Positions 10,878 to 31,208 of a stretch of 32,000 nucleotides of DNA are shown here, piece after piece (the first letter of the stretch is position 1; each line of letters opens with the position of its first letter). Under the pieces are notes generated by a model. The model worked only from the letters and a program-made list of their open reading frames with translations, was not told the DNA's origin and ran no database searches. Made by a program: the position numbers and the translations under genes. The DNA comes from an uncultured Pseudomonadota bacterium (GTDB taxonomy: Bacteria > Pseudomonadota > Gammaproteobacteria > Steroidobacterales > Woeseiaceae): contig CAJXJW010000007.1 in NCBI GenBank assembly GCA_913055625.1, positions 171,643 to 203,642 of the forward strand, given 5' to 3'.

Positions 10878-10890
10878 CGGACGAGGTCCG

Positions 10891-13856: not shown

Positions 13857-13872
13857 GGCCCGGGCTCGCGGT

Positions 13873-14628: not shown

Positions 14629-14691
14629 CGATACATGGCTCTCCCGGTTCGGCGCCCGACCGTATCCTATCCCGCCTCTGCGACTCAAGTG

Positions 14692-15738: not shown

Positions 15739-16808
15739 TGGATTCGTTGCCGCGCATCGTGTTTTTCAATATCAACGGCTCGGGCATGGGACACCTGAGC
15801 CGCTGCCTCGCGTACGCGCGCCGGCTGCGTGGCCAGGCACGACCGATATTCTTCTCGCTGGCCTCGGCGATCGAGATCATCGAGGAGATGGGGTTCGAGG
15901 CGGACTACTTCGTGTCGGAGTTCTGGTCCCGGGCTCACATCAGCGCGTGGAATCGCGAACTGGCCGTGCGCTTCGGCCTGTTCCTGGAGGAGGTGCGGCC
16001 GAGTGCCGTGGTCTTCGACGGAACCTGGCCGTTTCACGGGTTCATGGATGCCTGTTTCGCGGCGAAGGTGCCGCGCAAGGTCTGGTCGAACCGCGGCCTG
16101 CACAAGCCGGGATTCGCGCCGGTGCCCGTCAGCGAACGCGAGTTCGACCTGGTGCTCGAGCCCGGCGAGATCGGGGCGGCATACGCCGTCGTGCAGGACG
16201 AAACGCCCGGCCGCAAGGTGCGAATTCCGCCGGTCACGATTTTCGCCGGGCAGGAGTTACTCGAACGGAACGACGCCCGCGACGCGCTCGGCCTGGAGCG
16301 GGATGGCCGCTACGTGTTGTTCTCACTCGGACCGGGCAACCTGAAGGACGTCGGCGAAATCGCGCAGGGACTCATTGGCGTGTTCCGGGCGAGCGAATTC
16401 AGGATCGTGTGGGCCTGTGCCCCGATATCCGTCCGCGATGTCGACGTCCCGGACGACGTACTGCCGATCAGCGTTTTCCCCCTGGCGAAGTACATGCGTG
16501 CCTTCGACGGCTTTGTCGGCGCGGCCGGGTACAACGCGTGCTGCGAGGTGCTGCAGTCCGGCGTGCCCGGCATCCTGTTGCCGAACAAGCTCGTCGCCGA
16601 CGACCAGCAGAGGCGCGCGGAGACGATTGCAGCGCATGCGCGCGTCGTCGTGTCGGCATGCGAGTCGAGCGCAGAGCAGGAGCAGGCGCTGCTGGACCTG
16701 CGTCGGCTGGCCAGCATGCCGCCGCCGGCGGGGCAGGGCCCGGATCTTGACGGTGCCGATCGTGCTACGGACGAGATTCTGCGGCTGCTGTCGGGGAGCG
16801 CGGCGTGA
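15738..16808 (+). CDS. GT-B glycosyltransferase, MurG/GT28-GT1-like, module copy A
   Basis: N-terminal glycine loop 'RIVFFNINGSGMGHLSRCLAYARRL'. The C-terminal donor site 'VGAAGYNACCEVLQSGVPGILLPNKLVADDQQRRA' resembles the MurG-type 'xAGxxTxxExxxxGxPxxxxP...DQxxNA'. ATG 15738 overlaps the preceding TGA by 1 nt. Confidence 0.6.
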   Translation: MDSLPRIVFFNINGSGMGHLSRCLAYARRLRGQARPIFFSLASAIEIIEEMGFEADYFVSEFWSRAHISAWNRELAVRFGLFLEEVRPSAVVFDGTWPFHGFMDACFAAKVPRKVWSNRGLHKPGFAPVPVSEREFDLVLEPGEIGAAYAVVQDETPGRKVRIPPVTIFAGQELLERNDARDALGLERDGRYVLFSLGPGNLKDVGEIAQGLIGVFRASEFRIVWACAPISVRDVDVPDDVLPISVFPLAKYMRAFDGFVGAAGYNACCEVLQSGVPGILLPNKLVADDQQRRAETIAAHARVVVSACESSAEQEQALLDLRRLASMPPPAGQGPDLDGADRATDEILRLLSGSAA

Positions 16809-17353
16809 GTCTCGATGATGAGATCGTCGATGTCCGTCGCACGGTACAGCGCCTGGCCGACGAATCGGAGCCCGTGCTGTTGCGCCGCTATGCGCTCTGG
16901 CACCCGGTTGGTGAACGACGAACCCTGTGCCGGCGGCTGCGCCGGGCGCTGGGTCGCGTACTGCGTGCCGTCCGACTGCGTCCCACGGCTCCGGTGGAAC
17001 CGTGGCGCGTCGACCTGGAGCATGCCGGCTGCGGCGACCCGGTCCGGCCGTTCGTCATCTGGGCAATCGGCGCCGACCGGCAGCGGCTGGCGCAGGCGTG
17101 CGTCGGCTTCCGGCGCATGCTGCAGGACTCGCCTGGACGCGTGCCGGTGCTGGTGACGGATGTGGCGGACTTTCGCGCGTTCTCGCGGCTGGGCTGGCTC
17201 GTCGAATACGTGCCCAGGCTGTCCGAACCCGCCTCGGCGTACGGTAACCGGAAACTCCGCCATCTCGCGGCGCTGTACCGGGACGTGCCGGTGCTGCCGG
17301 TCAGCGCCGGCCTGGCCCGCGACGTGACCCTGGAGCAATTGCGGCTTGACTGA
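16805..17353 (+). CDS. Hypothetical protein, small partner of module copy A (no motif I recognise)
   Basis: GTGA start/stop overlap with the upstream GT-B gene. It has a paralog at 19190..19771 that shares 'PVLVTDVAxFxxFSRLGWLVEY'. Conservation between the two copies supports real coding. Confidence 0.55.
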   Translation: MSLDDEIVDVRRTVQRLADESEPVLLRRYALWHPVGERRTLCRRLRRALGRVLRAVRLRPTAPVEPWRVDLEHAGCGDPVRPFVIWAIGADRQRLAQACVGFRRMLQDSPGRVPVLVTDVADFRAFSRLGWLVEYVPRLSEPASAYGNRKLRHLAALYRDVPVLPVSAGLARDVTLEQLRLD

Positions 17354-18416
17354 TTCCGCCGAAAAAGACCTGCCGGTCGTCGTCTTCTTCAATATCAACG
17401 GGTCCGGAATGGGCCACATGAGTACCTGCCTGGCCTATGCGAACCGCCTGCGGGGGCGCGCGCGCCCGGTCTTTTTTTCGCTGGCGTCGGCCATGGAGTT
17501 CATCCACGGCATGGGCTTCGAGGGCGACTACCTGGTTTCCCGGTTCTGGTCGCGCGCCAGCGCCTGGGACTGGGACCGTGAACTGGCCCTGCGGCTGGGG
17601 TTGCTGTTCGAGCACGTGCGGCCGAAAGTCGTGGTGTTCGACGGCACGTGGCCGTACCGCGGGCTTCTGCATGCCTGTCGCGTCTACGGCGAGGCACGCA
17701 CCGTATGGTCGAACCTCGTCCTGTACAAGAAGGACTTCCGCAAAGTGCCGGTCAGCGAGACGAACTTCGACCTCGTCATACGGCTCGGCGAGATCGGCTC
17801 GGCATTTGCCGTGGAGCGCGAGCACCGTCCCGCTCGCACGGTGGTCGTGCCGCCGGTTACCGTCATGAAGGACGACGAGTTGCTGGATCGCCGGTCCGCG
17901 CGCCGTGAACTCGGTTTGCGGGAAGACGGTCGGTATGCCCTGTTCTCGCTCGGGCCGGGGAATCTCAAGGACGTCAGCGCGATCGGGGCGGGCCTGATCG
18001 ATGAAGTGTCGAGCCGGGGCTACGAGGTGCTCTGGACGCGTACGCCGATCAGCGAGTCGGACGTTCCGTTGCCTGACGGAATCGTGCCGCTATCAGTCTT
18101 CCCCCTGGCCCGCTACATGCGGGCGTTCGACATCCTCGCCAGCGCTGCGGGCTACAACACCTGCTGCGAGGTACTGCAATCGCGAGTGCCGACGCTATTC
18201 GTTCCGAACACACTGGTCGCCGACGACCAGGCGCGCCGCGCCGCGATGGTGGCGCGTGCGGTGCCGGCCGTGATCTCGCCGTGCGAGAGCGAGGAGGAGC
18301 GTCGCCGGGCAGTCGATCGACTCGTGTCCTTGGCCGACCACACCACGCCGGACGCGAACGCGGTCGACTTATCGGGCGCGGAACGCGTCGCCGAGGAACT
18401 CCTGCAACTGGTATGA
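17346..18416 (+). CDS. GT-B glycosyltransferase, MurG/GT28-GT1-like, module copy B
   Basis: 'VVVFFNINGSGMGHMSTCLAYANRL', 'ASAAGYNTCCEVLQSRVPTLFVPNTLVADDQARRA'. It is colinear with 15738..16808 over its whole length, with roughly half or more residues identical by eye. TTG start at 17346 overlaps the upstream gene by 8 nt. Confidence 0.6.
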   Translation: MTDSAEKDLPVVVFFNINGSGMGHMSTCLAYANRLRGRARPVFFSLASAMEFIHGMGFEGDYLVSRFWSRASAWDWDRELALRLGLLFEHVRPKVVVFDGTWPYRGLLHACRVYGEARTVWSNLVLYKKDFRKVPVSETNFDLVIRLGEIGSAFAVEREHRPARTVVVPPVTVMKDDELLDRRSARRELGLREDGRYALFSLGPGNLKDVSAIGAGLIDEVSSRGYEVLWTRTPISESDVPLPDGIVPLSVFPLARYMRAFDILASAAGYNTCCEVLQSRVPTLFVPNTLVADDQARRAAMVARAVPAVISPCESEEERRRAVDRLVSLADHTTPDANAVDLSGAERVAEELLQLV

Positions 18417-18422
18417 GTGCGA

Positions 18423-19151
18423 CTAGCCGAACAGCCCCTTCAGGAACCGGCGCCGCGGCTTCAGCGCGGGTAGCGTCCCGGTGTCACCGGGCTTCCGCGC
18501 CAGTCCCCAGCGCCCGTTGTTGATGATATGCAGATCCGTGTAGCCGAGCCTGGGAACGAGGATGTCGAAAACCATGCGCACCGCCGGCGTCGCGCGCTCG
18601 TCGGCGCTGGCCTGGCGCCAGTGCGCCGGTTCCTTCGCCATGCCGGACGCGGCTTCGCCGATCGTCCACGGGAGATCGTCGAAGAGGATCCACCCTCCCG
18701 GGCGCAGCAGAAAGTCCACGAGCACGAAGCCGAATCCCGTTGCGTCCCACGTGTGGCCGCCGTCGAAATAGCAGAGATCGAACTGTGGGCGCGGCGATTG
18801 CTGGATCATTCGGGCAAGCTCCCACGTGTACGACCGTTCCGCGAAGATTGTTTCGACGCGATGGGTCAACCCGAGTCTGGCAAGGACTTGATGGATGTTC
18901 GGGTCGCGGCGAGCTGCCGTGGTTCTGTCGACCGTCACGAGGTGTCCGTGCCCGCGGTCCTCGAGGATCGCGGCGATGTACGCGCTGCTCTTGCCATGGT
19001 AGAAACCGATCTCGAGGATCTGCTGCAGGTCGTGCCGGGACATCACGTCCCGGAGCAGCGAAGCTTCGGAATGCACCATGTAGTCGAGGTCGCCGAAGGT
19101 CGTGCGAACGTTGTCAAAGTTGTCCAATTTTCCGGATTCCTGCCTCTGCAT
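18423..19151 (-). CDS. Class I SAM-dependent methyltransferase (O-methyltransferase-like)
   Basis: Motif I-like 'QILEIGFYHGKSSAYIA', 'HLVTVD', 'FDLCYFDGGHTWD', 'LLRPGGWILFDD'. Start set at ATG 19151 ('MQRQESGKL..'). The ORF-track extension to 19376 is antisense to the next gene. Confidence 0.7.
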   Translation of the reverse strand: MQRQESGKLDNFDNVRTTFGDLDYMVHSEASLLRDVMSRHDLQQILEIGFYHGKSSAYIAAILEDRGHGHLVTVDRTTAARRDPNIHQVLARLGLTHRVETIFAERSYTWELARMIQQSPRPQFDLCYFDGGHTWDATGFGFVLVDFLLRPGGWILFDDLPWTIGEAASGMAKEPAHWRQASADERATPAVRMVFDILVPRLGYTDLHIINNGRWGLARKPGDTGTLPALKPRRRFLKGLFG

Positions 19152-19189
19152 TGCAATCGGGGAGCCCCGACCGCCGGGCCACGGCACGT

Positions 19190-19771
19190 ATGATACGTGA
19201 CGACGAAACCGAATTGATCGAGCGATTTCGAGCGGCGTCGTCGCCCGGTGCGGGCGGCGAGCCCGATTCGCGTTACGCCTTGAGCCATCCGCCGCGCCCG
19301 CCGGGACTGTACTGGAGGTTGCGCTGGTTCGCGGGCCGCGTCGTTCGATGGTTGCGAGCCAGGCGGCTTCTGGCATCGAACCCCTGGCCGGTCAGCCTGA
19401 CGTACGCCGGCTTCGACGCCCGTGCGAAACCGCTGGTCGTCCTGGCAATCGGCACGCACCCGGATGCGCTGGTCGCATCCTGCCGCAAGCTTGCCGGAGT
19501 GCTCCGGTCGTTTCCGGAGTTTGCGCCGGTTCTCGTGACCGACGTGGCGCGCTTCGCGTTCTTTTCGCGGCTCGGCTGGCTCGTGGAGTATCTGCCGGAT
19601 ATCGCCGGGTCCGACGCGGACTACCCGGAGCGCAAGTTCCGCCTGCTTGCGCGTCGCTACCGCGGCGCGCCGATCATTCCGCTGGGTGCGGCGAGCGAGG
19701 CAGCGTTCGACGAATCCGGGCTGCGGGCGTTGTTGATGGCCGGGCCCCGGGGACCGGCGGCGCGGCCCTGA
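19190..19771 (+). CDS. Hypothetical protein, small partner of module copy B (paralog of 16805..17353)
   Basis: 'PLVVLAIGTHPDALVASCRKLAGVLRSFPEFAPVLVTDVARFAFFSRLGWLVEYLPDI' aligns with 'PFVIWAIGADRQRLAQACVGFRRMLQDSPGRVPVLVTDVADFRAFSRLGWLVEYVPRL'. Start set at ATG 19190, because the ORF-track start at 18740 is antisense to the methyltransferase. Confidence 0.55.
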   Translation: MIRDDETELIERFRAASSPGAGGEPDSRYALSHPPRPPGLYWRLRWFAGRVVRWLRARRLLASNPWPVSLTYAGFDARAKPLVVLAIGTHPDALVASCRKLAGVLRSFPEFAPVLVTDVARFAFFSRLGWLVEYLPDIAGSDADYPERKFRLLARRYRGAPIIPLGAASEAAFDESGLRALLMAGPRGPAARP

Positions 19772-19804
19772 GGGCCGGTATCGGCGTCAACGCGTCATGC
19801 CGGG

Positions 19805-20851
19805 CTATCGAAATCGACGCTTCGACCAATTCTCCAGCCACCGTTCGGCCGGTAGGAAGCCGTACTCGGCTGCGACACGCTCGGCATCCGGGCGCAGTTC
19901 CTCCGCGTACCGGGCCCGTTCCTCGGCCGTCAGCGAGAACCGGATTCTGCGGCGGTTCTGGGGGCGAACCGTCCACGCCATCTCGTCGATGCCGAGAAAC
20001 GCGCAGACCTGCTTCATGACCGACCGCGGTTTCCGGCACAACTGGTCGAAATCCACGAGAAGAATGTTCTCGCGCGGGATCCTGGACGCAAAGAGATCGA
20101 GGTGGGCTGCGTAGCGGGAAAGGCGAAGGCAATGCCGAACGCTCCCGGTATCGCCGGTCTTGCCCAGCGTATGAGCCAGATGCGACTCTATCCGGTCCAC
20201 CGGGTCGCGAAGGAGGTAGGCGATCCGCGTTTCGGCTCCGAGGTTTGCAATTCGGGCAGGAACGTTCTTCGTCGCCGGAAGCTTCGCGTAGTTCGGCGAT
20301 ACGTCCAGCGTCCAGGCATGTTTCGCCGGGTCGAAGTCAAAGCGCCAGTCATAGTTCAACGCTGAGTGTGAGTTCCGGTAGAGCCTGGAAAAATAGTTGA
20401 TCTCTTTCGTGAAGCTCTTTCCGGGGACTTCGACGTTCGTGCCGCACAGGGCAGGGTGCTTCGAGAGCATGCGATGCAAGGTTGTCGTTCCGGCCTTCAT
20501 GGCACCGATCACGATGAAGTGGCGGCCGACCGGCTCGATGCCGGGACCGCTGGCCACCGAGAACGCCCGTGCGCCGAGCTCGCCATCGCGTCCCTCCACG
20601 GCGCATTCGATGTGCGTCGCTGCCGGAGGCGTCTTGATGCTAACGTGATCCGTGCGCGGGCCCAGGGCCCGTCGCTCCTCCGCGAGCAGGCGTCGGCGCC
20701 TGAAGTAGCGGACGTACACACTTGAGCCGCGAACGCCGGCGGGGTCGAAGCGAATCTCTACGTGAGCGGCAGCCCTGACGCGGAAACGATTGCTGTCGTT
20801 CAGGGATTCGGTCGCGCTTCGCTGCGGCGACGTACTAGATGTCGAGCTCAT
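19805..20851 (-). CDS. Sulfotransferase (PAPS-dependent family)
   Basis: 5'-phosphosulfate-binding loop 'IVIGAMKAGTTTLHRML' and 3'-phosphate-binding motif 'YLLRDPVDRIESHLAH'. ATG 20851 gives a ~110-aa N-terminal extension and a 17-nt overlap with the upstream ADH gene. In-frame GTG 20557 is a shorter alternative. Confidence 0.8.
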   Translation of the reverse strand: MSSTSSTSPQRSATESLNDSNRFRVRAAAHVEIRFDPAGVRGSSVYVRYFRRRRLLAEERRALGPRTDHVSIKTPPAATHIECAVEGRDGELGARAFSVASGPGIEPVGRHFIVIGAMKAGTTTLHRMLSKHPALCGTNVEVPGKSFTKEINYFSRLYRNSHSALNYDWRFDFDPAKHAWTLDVSPNYAKLPATKNVPARIANLGAETRIAYLLRDPVDRIESHLAHTLGKTGDTGSVRHCLRLSRYAAHLDLFASRIPRENILLVDFDQLCRKPRSVMKQVCAFLGIDEMAWTVRPQNRRRIRFSLTAEERARYAEELRPDAERVAAEYGFLPAERWLENWSKRRFR

Positions 20852-21980
20852 CGAGCGCCTCGGTCACGATGGACCTGACGTCGGCTTCCGTCGCATCGCG
20901 CAGATTGTTCTCTGCACGGCCGGGCGCGAACATCTGATTCGACAACGCGAGGACAGATTCCTTGTCCGGCACAAACCGGGAAACGTGCTTGCTGACGTCG
21001 ATTTTCTCGAACAATGCTGACAGGCCCTCGGCCAGTTCCGAGGGCCGGCGAAACCCGACGCTGCGCGCCAGGTCCTGCAGCCTGCCGTCGTCCGCCGCGG
21101 CATTGAACCTGAGCAGTGCCGGCAGCGTGAAGCTGCAGGCCAGCCCGTGCGGCAGTTCGAAATTCGAGGTCACCGGGTAGGAGATCGCGTGCGCGAGTGC
21201 CGTTCGGCTCTGGCTGATGGCGAGGCCGGCCAGCGTGCTGGCCTGGATCATGGCAGCCCGCGCCTCGATGTTGTCGGGTTGTTCGACGACCCGGGGAAGG
21301 TTGCGGATCGATTGCTGCAGCGACCGGGTGGCGAGTCCGATCGACACCGGCGTGGCATTGCGGTTCCAGCTCGATTCCAATGCATGCGACACCGCATCGA
21401 GGCCCGACGCAACCGTCACGGACTCCGGAAGTCCCAGTGTCAGCTCGGGGTCCAGGATGGCGTGCTGCGGGAAGAGATCATTGGCGGCAAGGGAATGTTT
21501 CTTCTTGCCCGCCCGGTCCCAGACCGTACCGAACGGCGTGACCTCTGCCCCGGTTCCGGCTGTCGTTGGCACAGCGATGACCGGCAGTGCAGGCGATACG
21601 TCGATTCGGCTCGTTCCGGCGAGCAGCGCATCGAGCGCGGTTCCCGCCGGGAGACCGAGCAGCTTTGCAAGCGCCTTGGCCGTGTCGATGACGCTGCCGC
21701 CGCCCACGGCCAGCAGGATGGCCGGGTCCTCGCGGCGTACGCGCTCCGCCTGGGCCTGTATGTCGCGAACGTCGGGGTTCGGTGCGACGTCATCGAGTAC
21801 GGCGACGATTCTTTTCCCGAATGTCTGTTCGAGGTTGTCGACGAGTCCGCGGCGGCGAAAGCCGGCGGAGGTAACCACCAGTACACGCGATTCCTCGACC
21901 AGCCCGGACAGTCGCCTGGCGGCGCCGATATCGAACAGGATCCGGACGGGGTTGTTGTAGGTCCAGGTCTCGTTGCGCAT
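20835..21980 (-). CDS. Iron-containing (group III) alcohol dehydrogenase; by context a phosphonoacetaldehyde reductase (PhpC/FomC-like)
   Basis: 'AVGGGSVIDTAKALAKL' and the metal-binding His-rich region 'LAHAISYPVTSNFELPHGLACS'. It lies directly downstream of ppd in the same operon. Confidence 0.7.
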   Translation of the reverse strand: MRNETWTYNNPVRILFDIGAARRLSGLVEESRVLVVTSAGFRRRGLVDNLEQTFGKRIVAVLDDVAPNPDVRDIQAQAERVRREDPAILLAVGGGSVIDTAKALAKLLGLPAGTALDALLAGTSRIDVSPALPVIAVPTTAGTGAEVTPFGTVWDRAGKKKHSLAANDLFPQHAILDPELTLGLPESVTVASGLDAVSHALESSWNRNATPVSIGLATRSLQQSIRNLPRVVEQPDNIEARAAMIQASTLAGLAISQSRTALAHAISYPVTSNFELPHGLACSFTLPALLRFNAAADDGRLQDLARSVGFRRPSELAEGLSALFEKIDVSKHVSRFVPDKESVLALSNQMFAPGRAENNLRDATEADVRSIVTEALDELDI

Positions 21981-22013
21981 GTTTCGACTGCGTCCCGATC
22001 TCGCCGGCGCGAC

Positions 22014-23138
22014 TCAGAGCCCGAGGCTCTGCATCAGCGCGTCGCGGTTCTCGATGGGCGTCGACTTCGGTCGGCCGAGCTCAGGCCGTGCTCCCTTGTT
22101 GACGACGACTTGCAGCAGGGCCGGTCCGCGTAGCCCGAGCAGCCGTTGCAGCTCGCGCGCAAGTTCCTCTTCGTCCGTGACCGACACGGCCTCGCGATAC
22201 CCGCAGGCCCGCGCGATGGCCGGCACATCGATTTCGTAGCCTACGGTGGGCTGCCCGCCGACCGAATCATGGGCCCCATTATTGATCACGATGTGCAGCA
22301 GGTTGTCGCTGCCTTGCCGGGAGATGATGCCCATGGCGCCCATGTGCATGATCAGCGAACCGTCACCGTCCAGGCAGACGACGCGGCGCGCCGGTTGTGC
22401 GCGTGCCAGTCCCATCGCGATGGACGCCGTGTGTCCCATGCCGCCGACGGTCAGGAAATCATTGCCGGCGGTACCTTTCGCCTGCCGATACTCGTAGACC
22501 TCCCGTGACGCTTTCCCGGTCGTCGAGACGACGACATCCTCATCCCCGAGCCGTTCGAGTACGCACTGGATTGCCGCCTCACGGTTCATCGGGTAGTTCG
22601 TCGCTGACTTCTTGCGCAACTCGTAACGTGCGAACGTGTTCTTGCGCACCAGGAGGGCCACGGGCGCCGCCGCCTCCTTCATCGTGCGGCATGCCTCCGC
22701 CAACACGGTGGTCGCGTCTTCCGCCTCGGCCGGCAAGACGAACCACGGCACCTCCATCGCATCCAGCAGCTCCGTCATTCGGCGTCCTTGCTTGACGTGC
22801 TGGGGCTCGTCCTTCACGCCGGGCTCGCCGCGCCACCCGATCACCATGAGCATCGGGACGCTGTAGACCTCGCGATCCGCGAGGGACAGCAAGGGATTCA
22901 CGGCATTGCCGATACCGGAGTTCTGCATGTACACCACTGCCGGTTTCGCGCTACCCAGGTAGTGCCCCATCGCCAGTGCGACCGCATTGCCTTCGTTTGC
23001 GGCAATCACGTGATCGTCGTCGGGTGCGTTGTCACTGACGTAGGCGCAGAAGTCCTTGAGCAGGGAGTCCGGGACGCCGGTAAAAAAGTCGAAGCCGTTC
23101 TGGCGCAGAAGGTCGTAGATGAGCGCGCTTTCCAGCAT
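22014..23138 (-). CDS. ppd: Phosphonopyruvate decarboxylase (ThDP-dependent)
   Basis: '[34 protein letters not shown]', 'NEGNAVALAMGHYLG', and the ThDP motif 'GDGSLIMHMGAMGIISRQGSDNLLHIVINNGAHDSVGGQ'. The ATG at 23136-23138 overlaps the pepM TGA at 23138-23140. Only the last 374 aa of ORF 22014..24104 are real. Confidence 0.9.
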   Translation of the reverse strand: MLESALIYDLLRQNGFDFFTGVPDSLLKDFCAYVSDNAPDDDHVIAANEGNAVALAMGHYLGSAKPAVVYMQNSGIGNAVNPLLSLADREVYSVPMLMVIGWRGEPGVKDEPQHVKQGRRMTELLDAMEVPWFVLPAEAEDATTVLAEACRTMKEAAAPVALLVRKNTFARYELRKKSATNYPMNREAAIQCVLERLGDEDVVVSTTGKASREVYEYRQAKGTAGNDFLTVGGMGHTASIAMGLARAQPARRVVCLDGDGSLIMHMGAMGIISRQGSDNLLHIVINNGAHDSVGGQPTVGYEIDVPAIARACGYREAVSVTDEEELARELQRLLGLRGPALLQVVVNKGARPELGRPKSTPIENRDALMQSLGL

Positions 23139-24439
23139 CAGCGCGTTCCCGGTATCAGGTCGAGAATTTCCTTGATCGACAGGAGCTGGCTGTCCGCCTC
23201 CGCGGACCGGCCGTTCGTCAGGATCGACTTTGCCGTGCTGACCATTGCCGGGTAGGCGGCACGCAACAACTGGTTCGCGTAGATGACGACGTTGACACCG
23301 TGGTCGATCAACTCGGCTTCCGTGACCTGGTTGTAGGTCGAGGGTACGACGACAAGAGGCACGCGGCGGTCGAACGCCTGGTAGCGATCGCAAAATTCGA
23401 AGATCTCGTCCGGCGTCTTGCTCTTGCTGTGGATCAGGATGCCGTCGGCTCCGGCCTCGATGTATGCCTGTGCCCGGGCTATCGCGTCGTCGAGGCCCTG
23501 TTCGAGGATCAGGCTTTCGATGCGCGCGATGATCATGAAGTCGTCGGTGATCTGCGCGGCCTTGCCGGCCCGGATCTTGCCGCAGAAGTTCTCGATCGAG
23601 TCCTGCTGCTGCGGCACCTCGTTGCCGAAGAGCGAATTCTTTTTCAATCCGACCTTGTCTTCGATGACAGCGGCAGAGACTCCGAGACGCTCGAGTGTCC
23701 TGACCGTGAACTGGAAATGCTCCAGCTTGCCGCCGGTATCCGCGTCGTAGACGATCGGTTTGGTCGTGACTTCCAGGATGTCGTGCAGGGTCTGTGTGCG
23801 CGACGTGACGTCGACGGCCTCGATGTCGGGTTTTCCCTTCGCCGTGGATTCGGTCAGGCTGCTGCCCCACATGCCGTCGAACTCGCGCGGGCCGTTCTTG
23901 CCGTTTGCGGAAATGCTTTCGACGATCAGACCCGTCAGGCCGTTGTGTGCCTCCATTAGCCGAACGAGCGGCTTGACGCGAAGCAGCCGCCGCAACTTGT
24001 TGCGACGCATGTCCGGTGTCGTGCCGATGTCCTTCATGGCTTCGTGCAACTGCGTCGACGAGATGCCCTTCGTGTACGGAATCTCGATAAGCTCGCCGCC
24101 CCATTCAGCGAGCGCGTCGACCACTGCGGCCCGCACGTCGCGCTGGACGCCTTCGCGCCAGTCGTCGCCGTGGACGACGAAATCCGGCTTCAATGCCCGC
24201 AGGTTCGGAACGTAGTCCAGCGTCTCCTGGGGAACGACCCGCTCGACACCTTTCAACTGCTCGACCACTTCCCGGCGTTGCTCGAAGGTCATGTAGGGCA
24301 GGCGCTTGTAGCTCGCGATCGCTTCATCCGTGAGCAGACCGATGGTGACCTGGCCCAGCTTCTGAGCTTCCCTGATGATGTTCAAATGACCGGGATGAAC
24401 CAGGTCTGCGCTCATCGCGACGTACACAAGCTTCGTCAT
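23138..24439 (-). CDS. pepM: Bifunctional protein: N-terminal HIGH-type cytidylyltransferase-like domain fused to phosphoenolpyruvate phosphomutase
   Basis: aa 1-~135: '[21 protein letters not shown]' (HxGH nucleotidyltransferase motif, TagD/ECT-like). aa ~145-433: PEP mutase with the diagnostic '[10 protein letters not shown]' (23633-23662) and 'DADTGG'. The Shine-Dalgarno-like GAGGAAG lies just upstream of ATG 24439. Confidence 0.9.
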
Positions 24440-24877
24440 CTACTTCCTCTTCTGCGTTCCGATTGCCCAATGCGTCAGGCCGGCTGCGACGTCCGGCGAA
24501 ACAGGCCCAAAGACAGGGAACGACGCAGGCAGGTTGCCAAGCCGGAGATTCGGGCAGAATGAATCCGAGGGTTTCGGCCGCTGGCGCCGCTGAAACCCGG
24601 CATACAGAAAGGCGGGCGGGTTCGCGATGGTTGCCCGAGACCTCGGCCGACAAGACTGCTGGGTCGTTCCGGCGGGTATTGTATGGCCTGATCGCTTGAA
24701 TCGCCATACCGAGGGCGGTTTCGGCAATGGCTGTATTTCGCGGTGAAATCCGCGCAGGCGGTCGCTCCGCGAAGTCGAATTGGCGGGTAATACAGACCGA
24801 GTTTGATACAATCCCCCGCCGATTAACCGGACCAGGCGCGATGCGACCGGTTCAGCGCCCTGTCTTGCGGCAAGGCA
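24440..24877. promoter_or_regulatory. Divergent intergenic control region between the pepM operon (-) and the Stealth/LicD operon (+)
   Basis: At 438 nt this is the longest non-coding gap in the accessory part. Contents: an imperfect hairpin GGGTTTC(24569-24575)/GAAACCC(24592-24598); a 7-bp inverted repeat GTATGGC(24681-24687)/GCCATAC(24703-24709); an extended -10-like TGaTACAAT (24804-12) about 66 nt upstream of ATG 24878; and GGCGGGT repeated at 24615, 24671 and 24782. Confidence 0.4.
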
Positions 24878-26533
24878 ATGACGTCGCCTGTTGTGAGCTG
24901 CGTGCGCCGCCGACCCGTTCCTGGAGACTGTGTGTTCCGCTCACTGCTCAGCCGATTCGATACGTTGCCGGTCGCAGGCCGCCTTCTGCGGCGCTTCGCG
25001 GCGACAGCCGAAGACGAGGCTGGTCGTCGGGTCGGAGATGCGGACGGGCTGCCGATACGACCTGCCGATCGGCGTGCCGTGTTGCAATCCTTGCTTGCGG
25101 CCAGGTTCCACGACGCCGGAATCGAGTGCCATTGTGCCGATGGAGAATCCGCTGCCTATTGCGCCATCCTCGACAAGGATGTCGATGGTGCTGCCCGGGT
25201 TCTGCAGCGACTGGCCACTGATCTCGGCGTCAACCAGGTCGTCGTCTGGCAGGGCCGGGGGTACGGGTACGGCGCGGAGCAGCTCGCCGAGTCGCTGCAA
25301 CCGGCTGACGTTGCCGGGTCGGACTCACTCGTCGTCGCCGTACCGATCGTCCGGGAACGATTGCGGATCGGACGATCCGGTGGCGTGGAGGTGCTGATCG
25401 TCGGGCGACAGGGGCCGCGCTACGTTGCGCGACGCGACTGGGCGGGCAAGGTCGACTGGACGCAGGAGTTTGCCGGCAGCACCAGTGTGCCGGCGGCTGA
25501 TGGCGAGGCCGCTGCGCGCCCGTCATGCTCGAGGAGGCCCCGGCAGCACGTTCTCGACCGCGAGCCCGTCGATGCCGTCTATACGTGGGTCGATTCCGGC
25601 GATGCGGATTGGCTCGCGGAGATGCAACGCTGGGCATCGCGGGAACGCGGGGGTCTCGAATCTTCCCGCGAGCCAGAGCGATTCGCCGATCGGGATGAAC
25701 TGCGCTATTCGCTGCGTTCGCTATGGCTCTATGCTCCCTTCGTGCGGAACGTCTTCATCGTCACGTCCGGGCAGGTCCCTCGCTGGCTCGATGGCTCGCA
25801 CGACCGGGTTCGTGTCGTGCCGCATCGAGACATTTTCCCTGACCGTCGCGATTTGCCGACGTTCAACTCCCACGCGATCGAGGCGTGCCTGCACCGGATC
25901 GAGGGACTCGCAGAGCATTTCATCTATTTCAACGACGACGTTTTCCTGTTGCGCGAAACCACGCCGGGGACGTTCTTCACCCGGAACGGCCTCGCGAAGA
26001 GCCGGTTCTCAACGCGGGCTGCGATCCCGGCCGTCGAGCCCGGGCCCGAGTCCATCCCGACGGATTGGGCGTCATACAATGCCGCGACGTTCATCGAGAG
26101 AGACTTCGGACTGCGTTTTGACAGGAAGCTCAAACACGTTCCCATGCCCATGAAGAAAAGTGTATTGGCCGACCTGGAAACGCGATATGCCGACGAGTTC
26201 GAGGCGACTCGCCGGGCTAGGTTCCGTTCCAGCAGCGATATCGCCGTGCCGAGCATGCTGGCACATCTGTACGGCATCTGTGCCGGTCAGGCCGTGGAGT
26301 GGCAGCACGTGCCCGGCGAGTACGTTTATGCGGACAGCGGCAGGTCCGATATACGATCGAAACTGGAGCAGATGCTCGAAGGTCCGGCCACGTTCGCCTG
26401 CATCAATTCGACCCGATTCTCCGACGTCTCCACCGAGGAGCAGCGCGACCTGCTCGCCCGCTTTTTCGAGCAGCGGTTCCCGTTCCGTTCTCCGTTCGAG
26501 ATCGAAGGCCGGCGCCCGGGTGCGCAATCGTGA
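24878..26533 (+). CDS. Stealth-family hexose-1-phosphate transferase (capsule phosphotransferase/polymerase-like), copy 1
   Basis: Stealth conserved regions: CR1 'VDAVYTWVDSGDADW' (from 25568), CR2 'DRDELRYSLRSLWLYAPFVRNVFIVTSGQVPRWL' and 'LPTFNSHAIEACLHRIEGLAEHFIYFNDDVFLL'. CR3/CR4-like regions: 'KHVPMPMKKS', 'SSDIAVPSMLAHLYG'. The ~230-aa N-terminal region is unassigned and the start codon is uncertain. Confidence 0.85.
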   Translation: MTSPVVSCVRRRPVPGDCVFRSLLSRFDTLPVAGRLLRRFAATAEDEAGRRVGDADGLPIRPADRRAVLQSLLAARFHDAGIECHCADGESAAYCAILDKDVDGAARVLQRLATDLGVNQVVVWQGRGYGYGAEQLAESLQPADVAGSDSLVVAVPIVRERLRIGRSGGVEVLIVGRQGPRYVARRDWAGKVDWTQEFAGSTSVPAADGEAAARPSCSRRPRQHVLDREPVDAVYTWVDSGDADWLAEMQRWASRERGGLESSREPERFADRDELRYSLRSLWLYAPFVRNVFIVTSGQVPRWLDGSHDRVRVVPHRDIFPDRRDLPTFNSHAIEACLHRIEGLAEHFIYFNDDVFLLRETTPGTFFTRNGLAKSRFSTRAAIPAVEPGPESIPTDWASYNAATFIERDFGLRFDRKLKHVPMPMKKSVLADLETRYADEFEATRRARFRSSSDIAVPSMLAHLYGICAGQAVEWQHVPGEYVYADSGRSDIRSKLEQMLEGPATFACINSTRFSDVSTEEQRDLLARFFEQRFPFRSPFEIEGRRPGAQS

Positions 26534-28227
26534 CGGCAACGTCGAAAACCGAAGGCGGATCGCCGGTGCCGAAATCAGTGCCGAACAACAACCTGTCGGG
26601 GGTGCCGTTGTTCAAGGTCAAGCTCGAACTGGCACGTATGGTGCTGTCGATGAACCGGCTTGCGCAGGATTGCGCACTCGAGCCGAAAGTTCAGGCGAGT
26701 ATTCCCAGGCCGATGGACGTCGTGCGACTGCCACTGGAAGAGCTGGGCCGGAAATCGGAGAAGTTCGCCCGCGCGATGGCCCGGTCGCGCCCGGATTTTG
26801 AGAGTCATTTCCGGGACAACCAGAACCAGGCGATTGTCATGGCGTGGCAGATGGCGAACATCGCGGCCGGTTGCGAAAGAACGCGCTACGAGTATGCGTG
26901 CGCGTGCCTGCGTGCGCACCGTCAGGGCACCGGGTACGCGATCCTCAAGGCGCTCGCAGAGGCCGAGGACAGCAAGTCGAAGTTCGTCACCGCCGCCAGG
27001 AAACGGATCGCAAGGCTGGCCTGGAAGTCGGGGGATACCGAGGTTGCGCTGCGCGCCATGAGGTCGCAGCGTGGGCGGGCGGCGCGCGCCCAGTACCGCT
27101 CGTGGCTAGGCATCTCGACCGTGCGCGACGGCCTGTTGATGGCCGAGGCGGGCGATATCGACAGTGCCCGACTGGTCTTGGCCGGGGGCTTGCGTGCGAA
27201 CGGCATGGACGACGAGGTGGCCGATGCCGTCGCAGCGGTCTATCTCAAGGCATCGTCGCTGAACGGTGAGTTCGACGTGCCGGCCCTCGTCGCGGAGGGC
27301 CAGGCGGCCGAGGCAGACCCGCCTGGCGCGCCATTGCCCATCATCCTGTCCGGGTTCGGCTGGTCCGGCTCCGGCGCCGTCGCCGATTTCCTGACCGGAC
27401 ATTCGGACGTCGTCGACGTGTTCGCGGGTCGGGAGATGGGGCTGTGGACGGGAAAGTACGGTCTCGATCGCCTCTACGCTCACTTCCATGCGAGAGGCTA
27501 CAATCGGCGCTTGCTGCTCGAGTTCCTCACCCGCCACTGTTTCGGGCACCGCTTCCTGGGTGACAGCAAAGGCACCAAGAGCCTGGGTGGCATGTGGGCC
27601 TGGCTGGACGATGCGCAGAAGCGCCGACATCTCGCCCAACTCTGGGCATGGCTCGATGCCATCGCTCGCTGGCACGAAGATCCGGAATGCGCGCTGCTCG
27701 ACGCGTTCCAGGCGTTCTCGATGGGATTCCTGTCGTTGCTGGAGGGGCGCGAGGGCAGCAAGGTGTTCCTGTCGAACTGCATTCCATCGGACTCGATCGC
27801 CGGCATACGAATGTTTCGCGAGCCGGTCGTCATCGTCTCCTGGCGGGATCCGGGCGACGCGTACGCGTCCAAGTCCGCCGCTTTTCCCGATACCTCGCTG
27901 ACGTTCGAAGGCTGGCGATCGCAGTTGACGCGCCGCATCGACCGGTACCTGTCGGGCAAACGGGAAGTCGCCGACTGTGCCAGTGTCTGGCTGGACGTGT
28001 CGTTCGAAGAGTTCGTCCGGGACGCACGCTCGCGAGAGCGGTTGCTGGAGAGGCTCCAACTCGACAGTGCGGCGATGCAGTCGACCTTTGATCCCGCAGT
28101 CTCCGCGCGCAATATCGGCATTCATGAGCCGGGGGCGGGTGCTGCCCGCACAGGCTGGATTGAGCTTGCGCGTGCGGTCGCCGAATCGCGGCAAGTGGCG
28201 CAATCGATCGGGGCAGACCGGGACTGA
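26530..28227 (+). CDS. Two-domain protein: N-terminal alpha-helical region plus C-terminal sulfotransferase-fold domain
   Basis: The C-terminal half carries the loop 'PIILSGFGWSGSGAVADFL', 'VVIVSWRDPGDAYASKS' (RDPxD..S, a 3'-phosphate-binding-like motif) and 'VSFEEFVRDARSRERLLERLQLD'. The N-terminal ~270 aa are Ala/Arg-rich and look helical. The GTG 26530 start (GTGA overlap with the Stealth-1 stop) is inferred; a later ATG near 26638 is possible. Confidence 0.5.
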   Translation: MTATSKTEGGSPVPKSVPNNNLSGVPLFKVKLELARMVLSMNRLAQDCALEPKVQASIPRPMDVVRLPLEELGRKSEKFARAMARSRPDFESHFRDNQNQAIVMAWQMANIAAGCERTRYEYACACLRAHRQGTGYAILKALAEAEDSKSKFVTAARKRIARLAWKSGDTEVALRAMRSQRGRAARAQYRSWLGISTVRDGLLMAEAGDIDSARLVLAGGLRANGMDDEVADAVAAVYLKASSLNGEFDVPALVAEGQAAEADPPGAPLPIILSGFGWSGSGAVADFLTGHSDVVDVFAGREMGLWTGKYGLDRLYAHFHARGYNRRLLLEFLTRHCFGHRFLGDSKGTKSLGGMWAWLDDAQKRRHLAQLWAWLDAIARWHEDPECALLDAFQAFSMGFLSLLEGREGSKVFLSNCIPSDSIAGIRMFREPVVIVSWRDPGDAYASKSAAFPDTSLTFEGWRSQLTRRIDRYLSGKREVADCASVWLDVSFEEFVRDARSRERLLERLQLDSAAMQSTFDPAVSARNIGIHEPGAGAARTGWIELARAVAESRQVAQSIGADRD

Positions 28228-28308
28228 CATGCGTGGAGCGGCAACGTCTGGCGGGGCGACCCGCTACAACCGGTCTGACGTCAAACCAATTACAGCAAAC
28301 CAGGACAA

Positions 28309-29940
28309 GTGCACGTGGCTCGTTTTTCTTCCGTCATAGTACCCCTGCGATCGCGGATTGCCGCGCTCATCGCGAAACATTCCCCGGATCGGTACAAGCG
28401 CATCATCGAGAACCGACATCCGGGGGTTCTCGTGGTCGGGGACCCGATGAGCGATGTCAGGAGCCTGAAGGAGCGGGCCGCCGAGCAACTCCTGCACTCG
28501 CTCGAGCAGGTGGGACTGCCGGTGCTGGCGAAAATCGACGACCGCAACTGCTGGATCGTGCTTGCCGGCACCGGTGACGACGAGGATGACGTCGAGCGGC
28601 TGGTCGGTGAACTGATCGATGCCGGCATGCGGATCTCCGTGGCGATGCGGGGACGCCGCACCAAGAGGATTTCGAGCCGGGAACGGCTTCAGAGGCTGAA
28701 GCAGAACAAACCGCTGGACATCCTGTCGATCCGGGCGGGCTTCGTCTGGATGCGAAATCGCGGCTACAAACAGGTCGGCTGGCACGCCGCGGTACGCGTA
28801 CATTTCTACGACTGGAATACCGAACACAAGTCGTTCGTCGCACGCAGGGCCGGGAACCTGCCGCCGATGATCGATGATCTCGGGCAAGAAAAGTCCCGGA
28901 TAACGGGTCTTTGCCGGCCCGAGACCCGGCTGGACAAAGTGCGGTTTCCGATCGACGTGGTGTACACCTGGGTCGACGGCAACGACCCCCGGTGGAACGA
29001 GAAGCGCAATCGGCGTGCCGCCGAGATGGGCCGCGACCTGCATCGGGTATCCAACAGCCAGACGCGCTATATCAACCGTGACGAACTGCGCTATTCGCTG
29101 CGTTCCCTTTATTACTACGCGCCGTGGATTCGCAAGATATACCTCGTGACGGATGACCAGGTTCCGGACTGGCTGAACGCCGACAATGACCTGTTGCAGG
29201 TGATCGACCATAAGGACCTGTTTCCCGAGCATGCATCGCTGCCGACGTTCAACAGTCACGCAATCGAATCCGTGTTGCACAGAATTCCGGGGCTTTCGGA
29301 ACAGTTCCTGTACATGAACGACGACGTATTCTTCTCGTCCGTCGTGCACCCGGAATCGTTCTTCGAGGTGAGCGGTATTGCGCGGACGTTCCTGAGCCGG
29401 TCGATGATTCCGTTCTGCAACGAGAACCGCTCCGAGATCGCGTCGGAGTGGGGCGCGATGAACGCGAACGACCTCATCGTCGAGAAGTTCGGTGCCATGA
29501 TGCCGTACAAGACCAAGCACACGCCGCTTGCGTTGCGCCGGTCCTTGTTGCAGGACTTGGAAGACCAGTTCCGGGTGCATTTCGAGCGCCTGCGCAGCAC
29601 GCCGTTTCGCACCGCCAACGACCTTGCGCCGACCTCCACCCTGCACGCGTACTTCGGGCTGGCCAAAGGCTACGTCGTTCGCAGCGACATCGCCTATCGC
29701 TATGTCAACCTGGCGAGGCCGGATCTCAAGCGGGCGCTCGACGCCATCGCCTACAGCCGGCATTCCATGGTCTACTGCCTGAACGACACTGAGATCGAGG
29801 ATCATGCGGAGTTCGACTGGGACGCGCAGGAGTTTCACATCAAGACGTTCCTCAACATGATGTACCCGTACCAGGCGCCATGGGAGCAGCCGGAACCCGA
29901 CGATTCACCGCTGGAAACCAGCAGGACGGACGCACGATGA
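28309..29940 (+). CDS. Stealth-family hexose-1-phosphate transferase, copy 2
   Basis: 'IDVVYTWVDGNDPRW', 'NRDELRYSLRSLYYYAPWIRKIYLVTDDQVPDWL', 'LPTFNSHAIESVLHRIPGLSEQFLYMNDDVFF', 'KHTPLALRRS', 'NDLAPTSTLHAYFG'. Starts are GTG 28309 or GTG 28315. The ~215-aa N-terminal region is unassigned. Confidence 0.85.
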   Translation: MHVARFSSVIVPLRSRIAALIAKHSPDRYKRIIENRHPGVLVVGDPMSDVRSLKERAAEQLLHSLEQVGLPVLAKIDDRNCWIVLAGTGDDEDDVERLVGELIDAGMRISVAMRGRRTKRISSRERLQRLKQNKPLDILSIRAGFVWMRNRGYKQVGWHAAVRVHFYDWNTEHKSFVARRAGNLPPMIDDLGQEKSRITGLCRPETRLDKVRFPIDVVYTWVDGNDPRWNEKRNRRAAEMGRDLHRVSNSQTRYINRDELRYSLRSLYYYAPWIRKIYLVTDDQVPDWLNADNDLLQVIDHKDLFPEHASLPTFNSHAIESVLHRIPGLSEQFLYMNDDVFFSSVVHPESFFEVSGIARTFLSRSMIPFCNENRSEIASEWGAMNANDLIVEKFGAMMPYKTKHTPLALRRSLLQDLEDQFRVHFERLRSTPFRTANDLAPTSTLHAYFGLAKGYVVRSDIAYRYVNLARPDLKRALDAIAYSRHSMVYCLNDTEIEDHAEFDWDAQEFHIKTFLNMMYPYQAPWEQPEPDDSPLETSRTDAR

Positions 29941-31208
29941 GCGACGAGACTGCGCAGGGCGTGCTGCCGCCCAGGGCACTGATCTACAGCTTCCGGTTCG
30001 ATTCCGCGAAGGCCTTGCTGGCCCGCGCGGAGTTATCGGTGCCGGAAAAGCTCCGTGCCCGCCTGCTGAAGGCTGTCGAGTACAACGAAGCCAGCACCTT
30101 GCCCGTCGTAGCACCGCGGGACGCCGCCGAACCCGTGCCGGTCGGGCGCTGGTGGGAGGTCTGGCCGTCCGACACGCACCTCAGGGTCAAGGGATACGTA
30201 TCGGCGGAGTGCCTGCGCGTGGGCCTGTTCGTCAATGATCGACTGGTCAAGCTCGTCAACACGGTGCCCCGCCACGGCGACGCTCAAGGCCGGCGGGTAT
30301 TTCGGTTCAACCTGAAGTCCGACATCATGAAAGCCCTGCCGAAAAAGACGGTCATCGGCATCGGGTCGGAAGTGGGCTACCTCCGGCGCAGGAGCGGGGG
30401 ACTGTCGTACCGGGATCCTCGTTTGAACGGCACGGGCACCCTGTTCAGGAAGCTCGCTTCCGGACATTTCCTCACGAAGAAAGGCCGGCTGCAGCGACGG
30501 CTCGACGAGAACGAGGAATGGAAGGAATCGATACTCGATGCGTACACCGTGTTTCGGAAGTATTTCGAAGAGCGCTTCGATTACAAACCCTACATCATTT
30601 GTGGCACATTGCTGGGCCATCACAGGGAGGGTGACTTCATTGCGCACGATGACGATATGGACGTCGCCTATTTCTCGCGACACTCCCGGCCGGAAGACGT
30701 CCGGCAGGAAATGGCCACGATCGTTCAGGCAATGCTCGCGGACGGCTACGACATCAAGCTCGCTCGCAAGCCCGGGTTTTTCAAGCCGACGATCGGAGGG
30801 CTCTCGTTCGACGTGTTCCCGATGTGGCACGACCTGGACTGTCTCTGGATGATGAACACTACGCGCCAGCGCAGTGGGCCGGAACGAATCCTGCCGGTGT
30901 CGACGGCAAGATTTCGCGGCGTCGACGTGTACGTGCCGAACCAGATCGAGGCGTACATCGCCTCCGAGTACGGCCCGAACTGGCGGGTGCCGGATCCCGG
31001 TTACCGTTCGATCGGGGAACCGGGAACATCCGAGTACCTCTTGCGGAGCTGCCTCAGCGTCGAAGAGGTTGCCGAAATTCTGGATCGGGTTGCTGCGCTG
31101 CGGGCGGAAGGCATTTCGACGGGAAAACTGTCGGTGGCGGAACGGGACCTTCAGGCCTGGGTGGCCGGCGCAAACGACACGGACGGGACACTGGCGGACC
31201 AGCAATGA
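29937..31208 (+). CDS. LicD-family phospho(no)-group transferase with an unassigned ~190-aa N-terminal domain
   Basis: LicD core 'YIICGTLLGHHREGDFIAHDDDMDVAYFS' (30591-30665), then 'FDVFPMW' and 'YIASEYGPNWRVP'. ATG 29937 overlaps the Stealth-2 TGA (ATGA). Confidence 0.8.
   Translation: MSDETAQGVLPPRALIYSFRFDSAKALLARAELSVPEKLRARLLKAVEYNEASTLPVVAPRDAAEPVPVGRWWEVWPSDTHLRVKGYVSAECLRVGLFVNDRLVKLVNTVPRHGDAQGRRVFRFNLKSDIMKALPKKTVIGIGSEVGYLRRRSGGLSYRDPRLNGTGTLFRKLASGHFLTKKGRLQRRLDENEEWKESILDAYTVFRKYFEERFDYKPYIICGTLLGHHREGDFIAHDDDMDVAYFSRHSRPEDVRQEMATIVQAMLADGYDIKLARKPGFFKPTIGGLSFDVFPMWHDLDCLWMMNTTRQRSGPERILPVSTARFRGVDVYVPNQIEAYIASEYGPNWRVPDPGYRSIGEPGTSEYLLRSCLSVEEVAEILDRVAALRAEGISTGKLSVAERDLQAWVAGANDTDGTLADQQ

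Follow-up and report, generated by a model that had tools for sequence, protein, structure and literature searches.

A Fom1-type cytidylyltransferase-PEP mutase fusion in a probable 2-hydroxyethylphosphonate capsule locus of an uncultured gammaproteobacterium

The fusion gene and its two domains

A contig of an uncultured Woeseiaceae bacterium (GCA_913055625.1, CAJXJW010000007.1) carries a gene in which a phosphoenolpyruvate (PEP) mutase, Ppm, is joined to an N-terminal cytidylyltransferase (CyTase) domain. We analysed this gene within the 32,000-nucleotide stretch that surrounds it, hereafter the window (contig positions 171,643 to 203,642). A first-pass annotation had recognised the fusion of a PEP mutase with a HIGH-motif cytidylyltransferase and gave no strand for it; the gene lies on the minus strand, and its open reading frame (ORF) starts at ATG 24439 with a GAGGAAG ribosome-binding site just upstream. 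Both halves score above the model cut-offs. PF01467 (CTP_transf_like) matches aa 12-131 (Pfam, E 2.6e-14, 54 bits versus a cut-off of 21), PF13714 (PEP_mutase) matches aa 149-407 (Pfam, E 2.2e-57), and the NCBIfam equivalog TIGR02320, 'phosphoenolpyruvate mutase', covers aa 149-432 (410.8 bits versus a cut-off of 319.55). The domain limits proposed earlier, residues ~1-135 and ~145-433, were accurate (Table 1). The identical 433-aa protein was called on several independent metagenome contigs, and both Pfam domains are present in 120/120 best database relatives (75-84% identity), nearly all of which are 425-443 aa long, with two reaching up to 479 aa. Hence, the fusion is genuine and no artefact of assembly or frameshift.

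A scan of species-representative genomes gave 152 relatives, and 80 loci were kept; with one further locus, 81 loci were analysed. Full-length identity of the surveyed relatives to the window fusion is 56-81%. The C-terminal residues had been described as a full PEP mutase, and the TIGR02320 score and an EDKxxxxxNS motif bear this out. The motif is that defined for Ppm in PMC6697681, and its E, D, K and N are invariant in 81/81 family members. PEP mutases 5unc and 1m1b from the PDB match the domain with E 1e-45, the top Foldseek matches of the C-terminal half are also PEP mutases, and the sister models for phosphonopyruvate hydrolase, methylisocitrate lyase and carboxy-PEP mutase stay far below their cut-offs on the window protein (NCBIfam). 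Judged by these homologies, the C-terminal domain is a genuine PEP mutase, not a methylisocitrate lyase or a phosphonopyruvate hydrolase.

For the N-terminal domain (aa 4-138), a phmmer comparison with all PDB sequences placed 5x3d_A on top (E 8.7e-62, 67% identity over 135 aa), followed by the ethanolamine-phosphate cytidylyltransferase (ECT) 3elb (E 2.9e-17) and by TagD 1coz (E 5.7e-10). PDB 5x3d is the CyTase domain of Fom1 from Streptomyces wedmorensis in its form bound to HEP-CMP, the cytidine monophosphate (CMP) conjugate of 2-hydroxyethylphosphonate (HEP). An AlphaFold2 (AF2) model of the window protein superposes on it with a TM-score of 0.92 and a root-mean-square deviation of 2.2 A (Foldseek). 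The HxGH signature had been noted in a peptide that we map to aa 10-22; its HPGH is aligned with TagD HWGH, ECT HYGH and Fom1 HPGH. The second nucleotide-binding motif, on which the first-pass annotation had made its reading depend, is present in register: YTKGISST (aa 122-129) stands against Fom1 YTPGISST, TagD RTEGISTT and ECT RTQGVSTT, and the wider segment lies opposite TagD PRTEGISTTKI, ECT KRTQGVSTTDL and Fom1 PYTPGISSTRL (HMMER).

The similarity to Fom1 extends beyond these motifs. Fom1 has the same order of domains, a PF01467 CyTase followed by Ppm. In the 81-member alignment H15 and G17 (81/81 each) and W94 are invariant, H18 and T123 are kept in 80/81 sequences and Y122 in 78/81. Altogether 36 N-domain positions are conserved in at least 95% of the members, and all 36 are identical in Fom1. 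Three Fom1-type signatures are shared by the window domain and are not present in TagD-type stand-alone enzymes: MSAD instead of GTFD before HxGH, Tyr for Arg in motif 2, and a 10-residue insertion after GDDW. TagD, ECT and CCT do share with the window domain the superfamily, the fold, HxGH, the RTxGISTT motif and the GDDW segment, but their substrates are phosphate esters, unlike the phosphonate expected here. In line with superfamily kinship only, the TagD equivalog TIGR01518 gives 49.7 bits versus a cut-off of 165.4.

The chemistry expected of the domain, cytidine triphosphate (CTP) plus a phosphonate giving CMP-phosphonate and pyrophosphate (PPi), is also that of the PntC enzymes (LicC-type, PF12804; e.g. 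Tde1415 and Ari1348; Rice et al. 2019). PntCs are often fused to Ppm as well, with the same proposed LicD-like surface logic. However, the folds differ, PntC being a MobA-like NTP transferase with GXG(T/S)R and the window domain a HIGH-type Rossmann domain with HxGH, and characterised PntCs prefer 2-aminoethylphosphonate (AEP) whereas the window CyTase is expected to use HEP. The fusion shows PF01467 and PF13714 only (Pfam). As far as sequence can tell, the N-terminal domain is a Fom1-type CyTase, PntC-like in its predicted function but outside that family.

The Fom1 CyTase domain converts CTP and HEP to CMP-HEP, and Fom1 with Fom2, a phosphonopyruvate decarboxylase (Ppd), and FomC, an iron-dependent alcohol dehydrogenase (Fe-ADH), takes PEP to 2-HEP-CMP, according to the accounts of Cho et al. 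(2017, ACS Chem Biol 12:2209) given in PMC6697681, PMC9088020 and PMC8158854. The first-pass annotation had offered as inference that a HIGH-type domain might act on a phosphonate, possibly HEP. For Fom1 this is established (PMC6697681, PMC9088020, PMC8158854; 5x3d), and we infer that the window orthologue shares its substrate. The product proposed at the same time, a CMP-phosphonate of the donor type used by LicD, is also the likely one given the 67% identity to the Fom1 CyTase. The novelty of the fusion, in contrast, had been overrated. Of 1485 RefSeq Ppm proteins 59.5% are fused, with PF12804 (33%), PF01467 (23.6%) or both (~3%) as partners (Rice et al. 2019, PMC6697681), and PF01467-Ppm fusions are listed again by Li & Horsman (2022, PMC8942020). 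JGI labels proteins 77-84% identical to ours 'PEP phosphomutase / 2-hydroxyethylphosphonate cytidylyltransferase'. Since function and abundance are published and annotation pipelines name it, this fusion type is already characterised and very common, and as a fusion it is nothing new.

A three-gene cassette in a capsule locus

The fusion gene is followed by genes for Ppd and an Fe-ADH (Table 1). The Ppd ATG overlaps the fusion TGA by 1 nt (TGATG). These partners parallel Fom2 and FomC, which together with Fom1 make HEP. None of the window's ORFs matched an aminotransferase (Pfam/NCBIfam). Because the Fe-ADH is coupled to Ppd and an aminotransferase is lacking in the window, HEP rather than AEP is the expected product. 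Since its best curated match stays below the model cut-off (see below), automated pipelines would give this Fe-ADH only a generic name, despite its conserved place after Ppd.

The cassette is widespread. Ppd was detected in 74/81 loci and Fe-ADH in 72/81, and the contiguous order fusion, Ppd, ADH is kept in 67 of them. Bacterial hosts include Xanthomonadales, Alteromonadaceae, Alphaproteobacteria, Bacteroidota, Spirochaetota, Bacillota, Actinomycetota (among them Ca. Stackebrandtia and Nonomuraea), Gastranaerophilales and Helicobacter. Archaeal carriers are Methanomassiliicoccaceae (loci L010, L011) and Methanobrevibacter (L069, L071, L074-L076). The nearest relatives of the fusion, at 77-82% identity, come from Pseudoxanthomonas, Stenotrophomonas, Rhodanobacteraceae and Woeseiaceae. 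By these relatives the host appears to be a Xanthomonadales-like gammaproteobacterium, and an actinomycete origin, first considered in view of the high GC and the known phosphonoglycans, was rejected. The cassette of the archaeal methanogens shares 59-74% protein identity with the gammaproteobacterial copy in the window, which implies that the three-gene module has been passed extensively between domains by horizontal transfer. A module so widely transferred among bacteria and methanogenic archaea (56-81% identity) fits the abundance of HEP, one of the most abundant phosphonates of marine high-molecular-weight dissolved organic phosphorus (PMC8931226).

In a minority of loci (L077, L082, L035, L078, L085) the fusion is present but Ppd and/or Fe-ADH were not detected; a LicD gene directly follows the fusion in L077 (10001-12262) and L082 (10001-12171). 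Loci of this kind may activate a different phosphonate.

The surroundings of the cassette in the window are those of a capsule or exopolysaccharide (EPS). Upstream lie ugd, an epimerase gene, pgi, two Wzi capsule-assembly paralogues and several glycosyltransferase genes, and these capsule genes are preceded by housekeeping genes (fabI, SLT-LysM transglycosylase, rnhA, dnaQ, nhaB). Divergently from the fusion gene run genes for two Stealth-family proteins, a divergent sulfotransferase-fold protein and a LicD-like protein. A canonical sulfotransferase gene shares 17 nt with the end of the Fe-ADH gene and is therefore probably co-translated with the cassette; no homologue of it was found in the surveyed loci (0/81). 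Its product may act on the glycan or on the hydroxyl of HEP. In relatives, the cassette adjoins ABC-type capsule export genes, Glyphos_transf, Capsule_synth and LicD.

Although the fusion has the same partner enzymes as Fom1, the window, from a gammaproteobacterium and not a Streptomyces, is unlike the fom cluster in its other genes. Domains of Fom3 (radical-SAM/B12 methyltransferase), Fom4 (HppE epoxidase), FomD (CMP-HPP hydrolase) and the FomA/B kinases were absent from the coding-type ORFs of the 32 kb window (Pfam, NCBIfam), and in their place the neighbours are Stealth, LicD, Wzi, glycosyltransferases and sulfotransferases. On these grounds we rejected a fosfomycin cluster. Given the capsule neighbours and the lack of a radical-SAM/B12 enzyme, HppE and a FomD-type protein, the locus is of the capsule/EPS kind, and the HEP cassette lies embedded in it.

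Table 1. Features of the window (window positions) and members of the sulfotransferase-fold family in comparison loci (L numbers)
Feature	Position	Strand	Extent and basis
Fusion gene, Fom1-type bifunctional 2-hydroxyethylphosphonate cytidylyltransferase / PEP mutase	23138..24439	minus	433 aa + stop codon; ORF, PF01467 + PF13714, TIGR02320
N-terminal CyTase domain, HIGH-type nucleotidyltransferase	24026..24439	minus	aa 1-138; phmmer vs PDB 5x3d, Foldseek
HPGH, first nucleotide-binding motif (HxGH)	24386..24397	minus	aa 15-18; HMMER alignment
YTKGISS, second nucleotide-binding motif (RTxGISTT-type, Tyr for Arg)	24056..24076	minus	aa 122-128; HMMER alignment
C-terminal PEP mutase domain	23141..23995	minus	aa 149-433; TIGR02320, PDB 5unc + 1m1b, Foldseek
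Ppm-specific EDKxxxxxNS motif	23633..23662	minus	aa 260-269; regex match
Phosphonopyruvate decarboxylase (Ppd)	22014..23138	minus	374 aa; TIGR03297 484.4 bits vs cut-off 312.5; TPP_enzyme_N/C
Fe-dependent alcohol dehydrogenase, probable phosphonoacetaldehyde reductase (PhpC/FomC-like)	20835..21980	minus	PF00465 + PF25137
Canonical sulfotransferase	19805..20851	minus	Sulfotransfer_3 E 6.7e-17, Sulfotransfer_1 E 4e-13; GAMKAGTTT + LLRDPVDRIES
Class I S-adenosylmethionine (SAM) methyltransferase (Methyltransf_24)	18423..19376	minus	PF13578 E 6.4e-17
Two tandem Wzi-type capsule-assembly paralogues	10684-12366 and 11910-13856	plus	PF14052 E 3e-78 and E 8e-74; maximal ORFs overlap
Stealth-family protein A (CR1-CR4), divergent from fusion gene	24878..26533	plus	PF11380 E 1.4e-43 + CR1, CR3, CR4
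Divergent sulfotransferase-fold protein, unnamed family, true start uncertain	26299..28227	plus	Sulfotransfer_3 below cut-off, motifs, AF2/Foldseek, synteny
Stealth-family protein B (CR1-CR4)	28309..29940	plus	PF11380 E 5.3e-45 + CR1, CR3, CR4
LicD-like phosphotransferase, proposed CMP-HEP user	29880..31208	plus	LicD core ~aa 215-442; PF04991, NF045866, iterated HMM
Sulfotransferase-fold family members	L007:17668-19590, L012:8492-9457, L027:8326-9984, L039:13572-15665, L065:8341-9525		
Sulfotransferase-fold family members, continued	L086:10001-11599, L087:10001-11530, L088:10001-11596, L089:4319-5938		

Proposed fate of the activated phosphonate

We consider it highly probable that the Fom1-type enzyme makes CMP-HEP in this capsule locus, with the LicD-like protein most likely putting HEP on a surface glycan. 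In the proposed pathway, the Ppm domain would form the C-P bond by converting PEP to phosphonopyruvate, and Ppd would decarboxylate this to phosphonoacetaldehyde. The decarboxylation pulls the unfavourable mutase equilibrium. The Fe-ADH would then reduce phosphonoacetaldehyde to HEP, and the N-terminal CyTase, given its 67% identity to the characterised Fom1, would join HEP and CTP to CMP-HEP with release of PPi. Finally, the LicD-like protein is predicted to transfer the HEP-phosphonyl group from CMP-HEP to a glycan hydroxyl, by a logic like that of CDP-choline and LicD. A general scheme of this kind for surface phosphonate tailoring, cytidylyl activation followed by LicD-like transfer, has been proposed (Rice et al. 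2019, PMC6697681).

The role of CMP-HEP as a donor for LicD is suggested by the position of the cassette in a capsule/exopolysaccharide locus and not in a fosfomycin cluster. It is further supported by the recurrence of LicD-type genes next to the cassette. The window ORF matches PF04991 (26.7 bits versus a cut-off of 22.6, Pfam) and the LicD-type cholinephosphotransferase model NF045866 (E 6e-9), and with an iterated hidden Markov model (HMM) it falls into one group (E 3e-40) with ORFs from 33 other loci. With this window-seeded model, a LicD-like homologue was found at most 10 kb from the fusion in 33/81 loci, often directly 3' of the ADH gene; out of nine homologues tested, eight match Pfam LicD, and seven of these exceed the family cut-off. 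In Stenotrophomonas daejeonensis JCM 16244 the gene after ADH encodes a single protein of 1206 aa that joins Glyphos_transf, Capsule_synth and LicD domains.

Glycans of the expected kind have precedents in actinomycetes. Yu et al. reportedly described, in 2014, HEP-containing phosphonoglycans of Stackebrandtia nassauensis and a Glycomyces sp. in which HEP is ester-linked to the exopolysaccharide; the systems are said to be pepM clusters of the HEP (PhpC) type and the glycans to contain O-methylated sugars. To our knowledge, the Stackebrandtia and Glycomyces EPS have not been reported to involve a Stealth or sulfotransferase module. The O-methylated sugars have a parallel in the SAM methyltransferase of the window, and a metagenome-assembled genome of Ca. 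Stackebrandtia (L054) carries the same fusion-Ppd-ADH cassette at 65% identity. However, those phosphonoglycans are actinomycete EPS, whereas the window is a gammaproteobacterial capsule locus. The HEP (PhpC-type) neighbourhoods compiled by Li & Horsman (2022, PMC8942020) include the HEP-exopolysaccharide producer Stackebrandtia nassauensis, and that paper points to sources for HEP-bearing exopolysaccharides in both Stackebrandtia and Glycomyces.

Several observations weigh against this interpretation. The HEP activity of the window CyTase is predicted by homology to Fom1, and the AF2 model of the full fusion is moderate (mean pLDDT 72, pTM 0.59), so that we used it for per-domain fold matches only. 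The best NCBIfam match of the Fe-ADH, TIGR03405 (Phn_Fe-ADH), reaches 366 bits, below its cut-off of 423.7, and HEP formation is therefore deduced from best match and synteny. The PF04991 match of the LicD-like ORF is limited to a 25-aa stretch, and its gene lies 5.4 kb from the fusion in a divergent operon. With a LicD-like gene near the fusion in only 33/81 loci, many genomes must rely on other transferases to use the product. Finally, we know of no PF01467-type CyTase shown biochemically to feed a glycan transferase; Fom1, the sole characterised case, cytidylylates transiently.

The last point raises the question of whether CMP-HEP in the window might be a transient, carrier-like intermediate of a diffusible phosphonate natural product instead of a donor for a surface glycan. 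Transient use, with methylation by Fom3 and then hydrolysis by FomD, is the only experimentally documented role of a Fom1-type CyTase (PMC8158854, PMC9088020), and a small molecule could in principle be modified by the SAM methyltransferase and the sulfotransferase, whose genes come right after the cassette. Nevertheless, the coding-type ORFs of the window are without Fom3, HppE (Fom4), FomD or FomA/B kinase domains, the cassette is surrounded by Wzi, glycosyltransferase, Stealth and LicD genes, and capsule genes lie beside it in relatives. We regard such a product as very improbable. Because the genomic context differs from that of the fom cluster, CMP-HEP in the window probably serves as a transfer donor, unlike the transient handle that it is with Fom1.

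A loss of catalysis, with the N-terminal domain serving as a dead, regulatory or oligomerisation appendage of the PEP mutase, is less probable still, to the point of being hardly credible. It could be argued from the Tyr that replaces the canonical Arg of RTxGISTT, but active Fom1 carries the same change, and the HxGH, GDDW and T-x-G-I-S-S-T core is nearly invariant in 81 homologues from many phyla, which points to purifying selection on an active site. An active domain could instead have a substrate other than HEP, such as AEP, 1,2-dihydroxyethylphosphonate derived from phosphonoacetaldehyde, O-sulfated or O-methylated HEP, phosphoethanolamine or glycerol-3-phosphate. PF01467-Ppm fusions do occur in AEP-transaminase neighbourhoods (GCF 743, PMC8942020), Ppd or ADH was not detected in L035, L077, L078 and L085, a sulfotransferase and a methyltransferase are co-operonic with the cassette, and in L089 a similar capsule module is paired with a TagD-type glycerol-3-phosphate cytidylyltransferase and not with the cassette (see below). 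Set against this are the 67% identity to a Fom1 CyTase crystallised with HEP-CMP, the identity at 36/36 family-conserved positions, the TIGR01518 score of 49.7 bits against its 165.4-bit cut-off together with the signature differences, and the direct coupling of Fe-ADH to Ppd in a window lacking an aminotransferase. We judge another substrate to be unlikely, and retain HEP as the group activated by the fusion and, by way of CMP-HEP, as the group that the LicD-like protein is inferred to transfer to the glycan. Overall, the window probably marks an HEP-phosphonoglycan capsule locus in an uncultured gammaproteobacterium.

The Stealth and sulfotransferase-fold genes of the capsule module

What is mildly novel in the locus is its capsule context, with Stealth, sulfotransferase-fold and LicD genes around an HEP cassette. 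These neighbours are candidate users of CMP-HEP outside fosfomycin producers. A literature search found no paper linking Stealth proteins or capsules with phosphonates.

The divergent sulfotransferase-fold protein belongs to an unnamed family. Its Sulfotransfer_3 match is below threshold (Pfam), and the conserved core comprises about the last 300 aa, with the motifs GFxWSGSGA and RDPxD. The best PDB neighbours of its confident AF2 model (pLDDT 86) are sulfotransferases, albeit with weak scores (Foldseek E 6e-6, TM-score 0.41-0.49). From a set of 5.8 billion proteins 19 relatives were retrieved, and all named ones are 'hypothetical'; most family members have no Pfam match. The family is found at most 10 kb from the fusion in 15/81 loci belonging to several phyla. 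Of four relatives on contigs >10 kb, chosen for carrying the family, three directly adjoin the fusion-Ppd-ADH cassette, and two of these three cassette contigs also carry Stealth and genes for ABC-type capsule export. In the window the sulfotransferase-fold gene stands between two Stealth-family genes of the hexose-1-phosphate transferase type. The same pairing beside the cassette was seen in loci L007, L039, L086 and L087, from Stenotrophomonas mori CPCC 101365, a Rhodanobacteraceae metagenome-assembled genome and Woeseiaceae contigs, the last with ABC-type capsule export genes.

In L089 (900-7466), the fourth of these contigs, a block of Stealth, sulfotransferase-fold, Stealth and LicD genes stands with a stand-alone TagD-type cytidylyltransferase (GTFDLFHIGH, LPRTEGVSTT), and no Ppm was found on this 10.7 kb contig. 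The pairing weakens the idea that the sulfotransferase-fold family is HEP-specific. It suggests that this capsule module can exchange HEP for a phosphate-ester head group, probably glycerol-phosphate, and vice versa. The sulfotransferase-fold family is thus part of a capsule module whose head groups, HEP or probably glycerol-phosphate, are cytidylyl-activated.

The recurrence of the family beside the cassette across phyla also allows a bolder proposal, in which it is a new capsule-modifying class tied to such head groups. The cassette may then feed an undescribed Stealth-type hexose-1-phosphate capsule polymer to which HEP is added by LicD. The free 2-hydroxyl of HEP would then either receive a sulfate from one of the two sulfotransferase-fold proteins or serve as a Stealth acceptor (bridging HEP). 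Export would be of the ABC type known from relatives. We hold this proposal to be doubtful.

A promoter scan of positions 18000-25200 returned 0 promoter-like sites, and terminator-like sites there did not exceed the shuffle expectation. Rfam and tRNA scans of the window gave no matches. The GC content given for the host is 65.5%. In the phosphonate/Stealth part of the window (20000-32000) GC is 0.60-0.66 versus 0.67-0.71 in the Wzi/glycosyltransferase part (12000-19000), and GC at third codon positions (GC3) is also lower in the phosphonate/Stealth genes (0.74-0.83 versus 0.81-0.91). The lower GC and GC3 are compatible with horizontal acquisition of the phosphonate/Stealth block.

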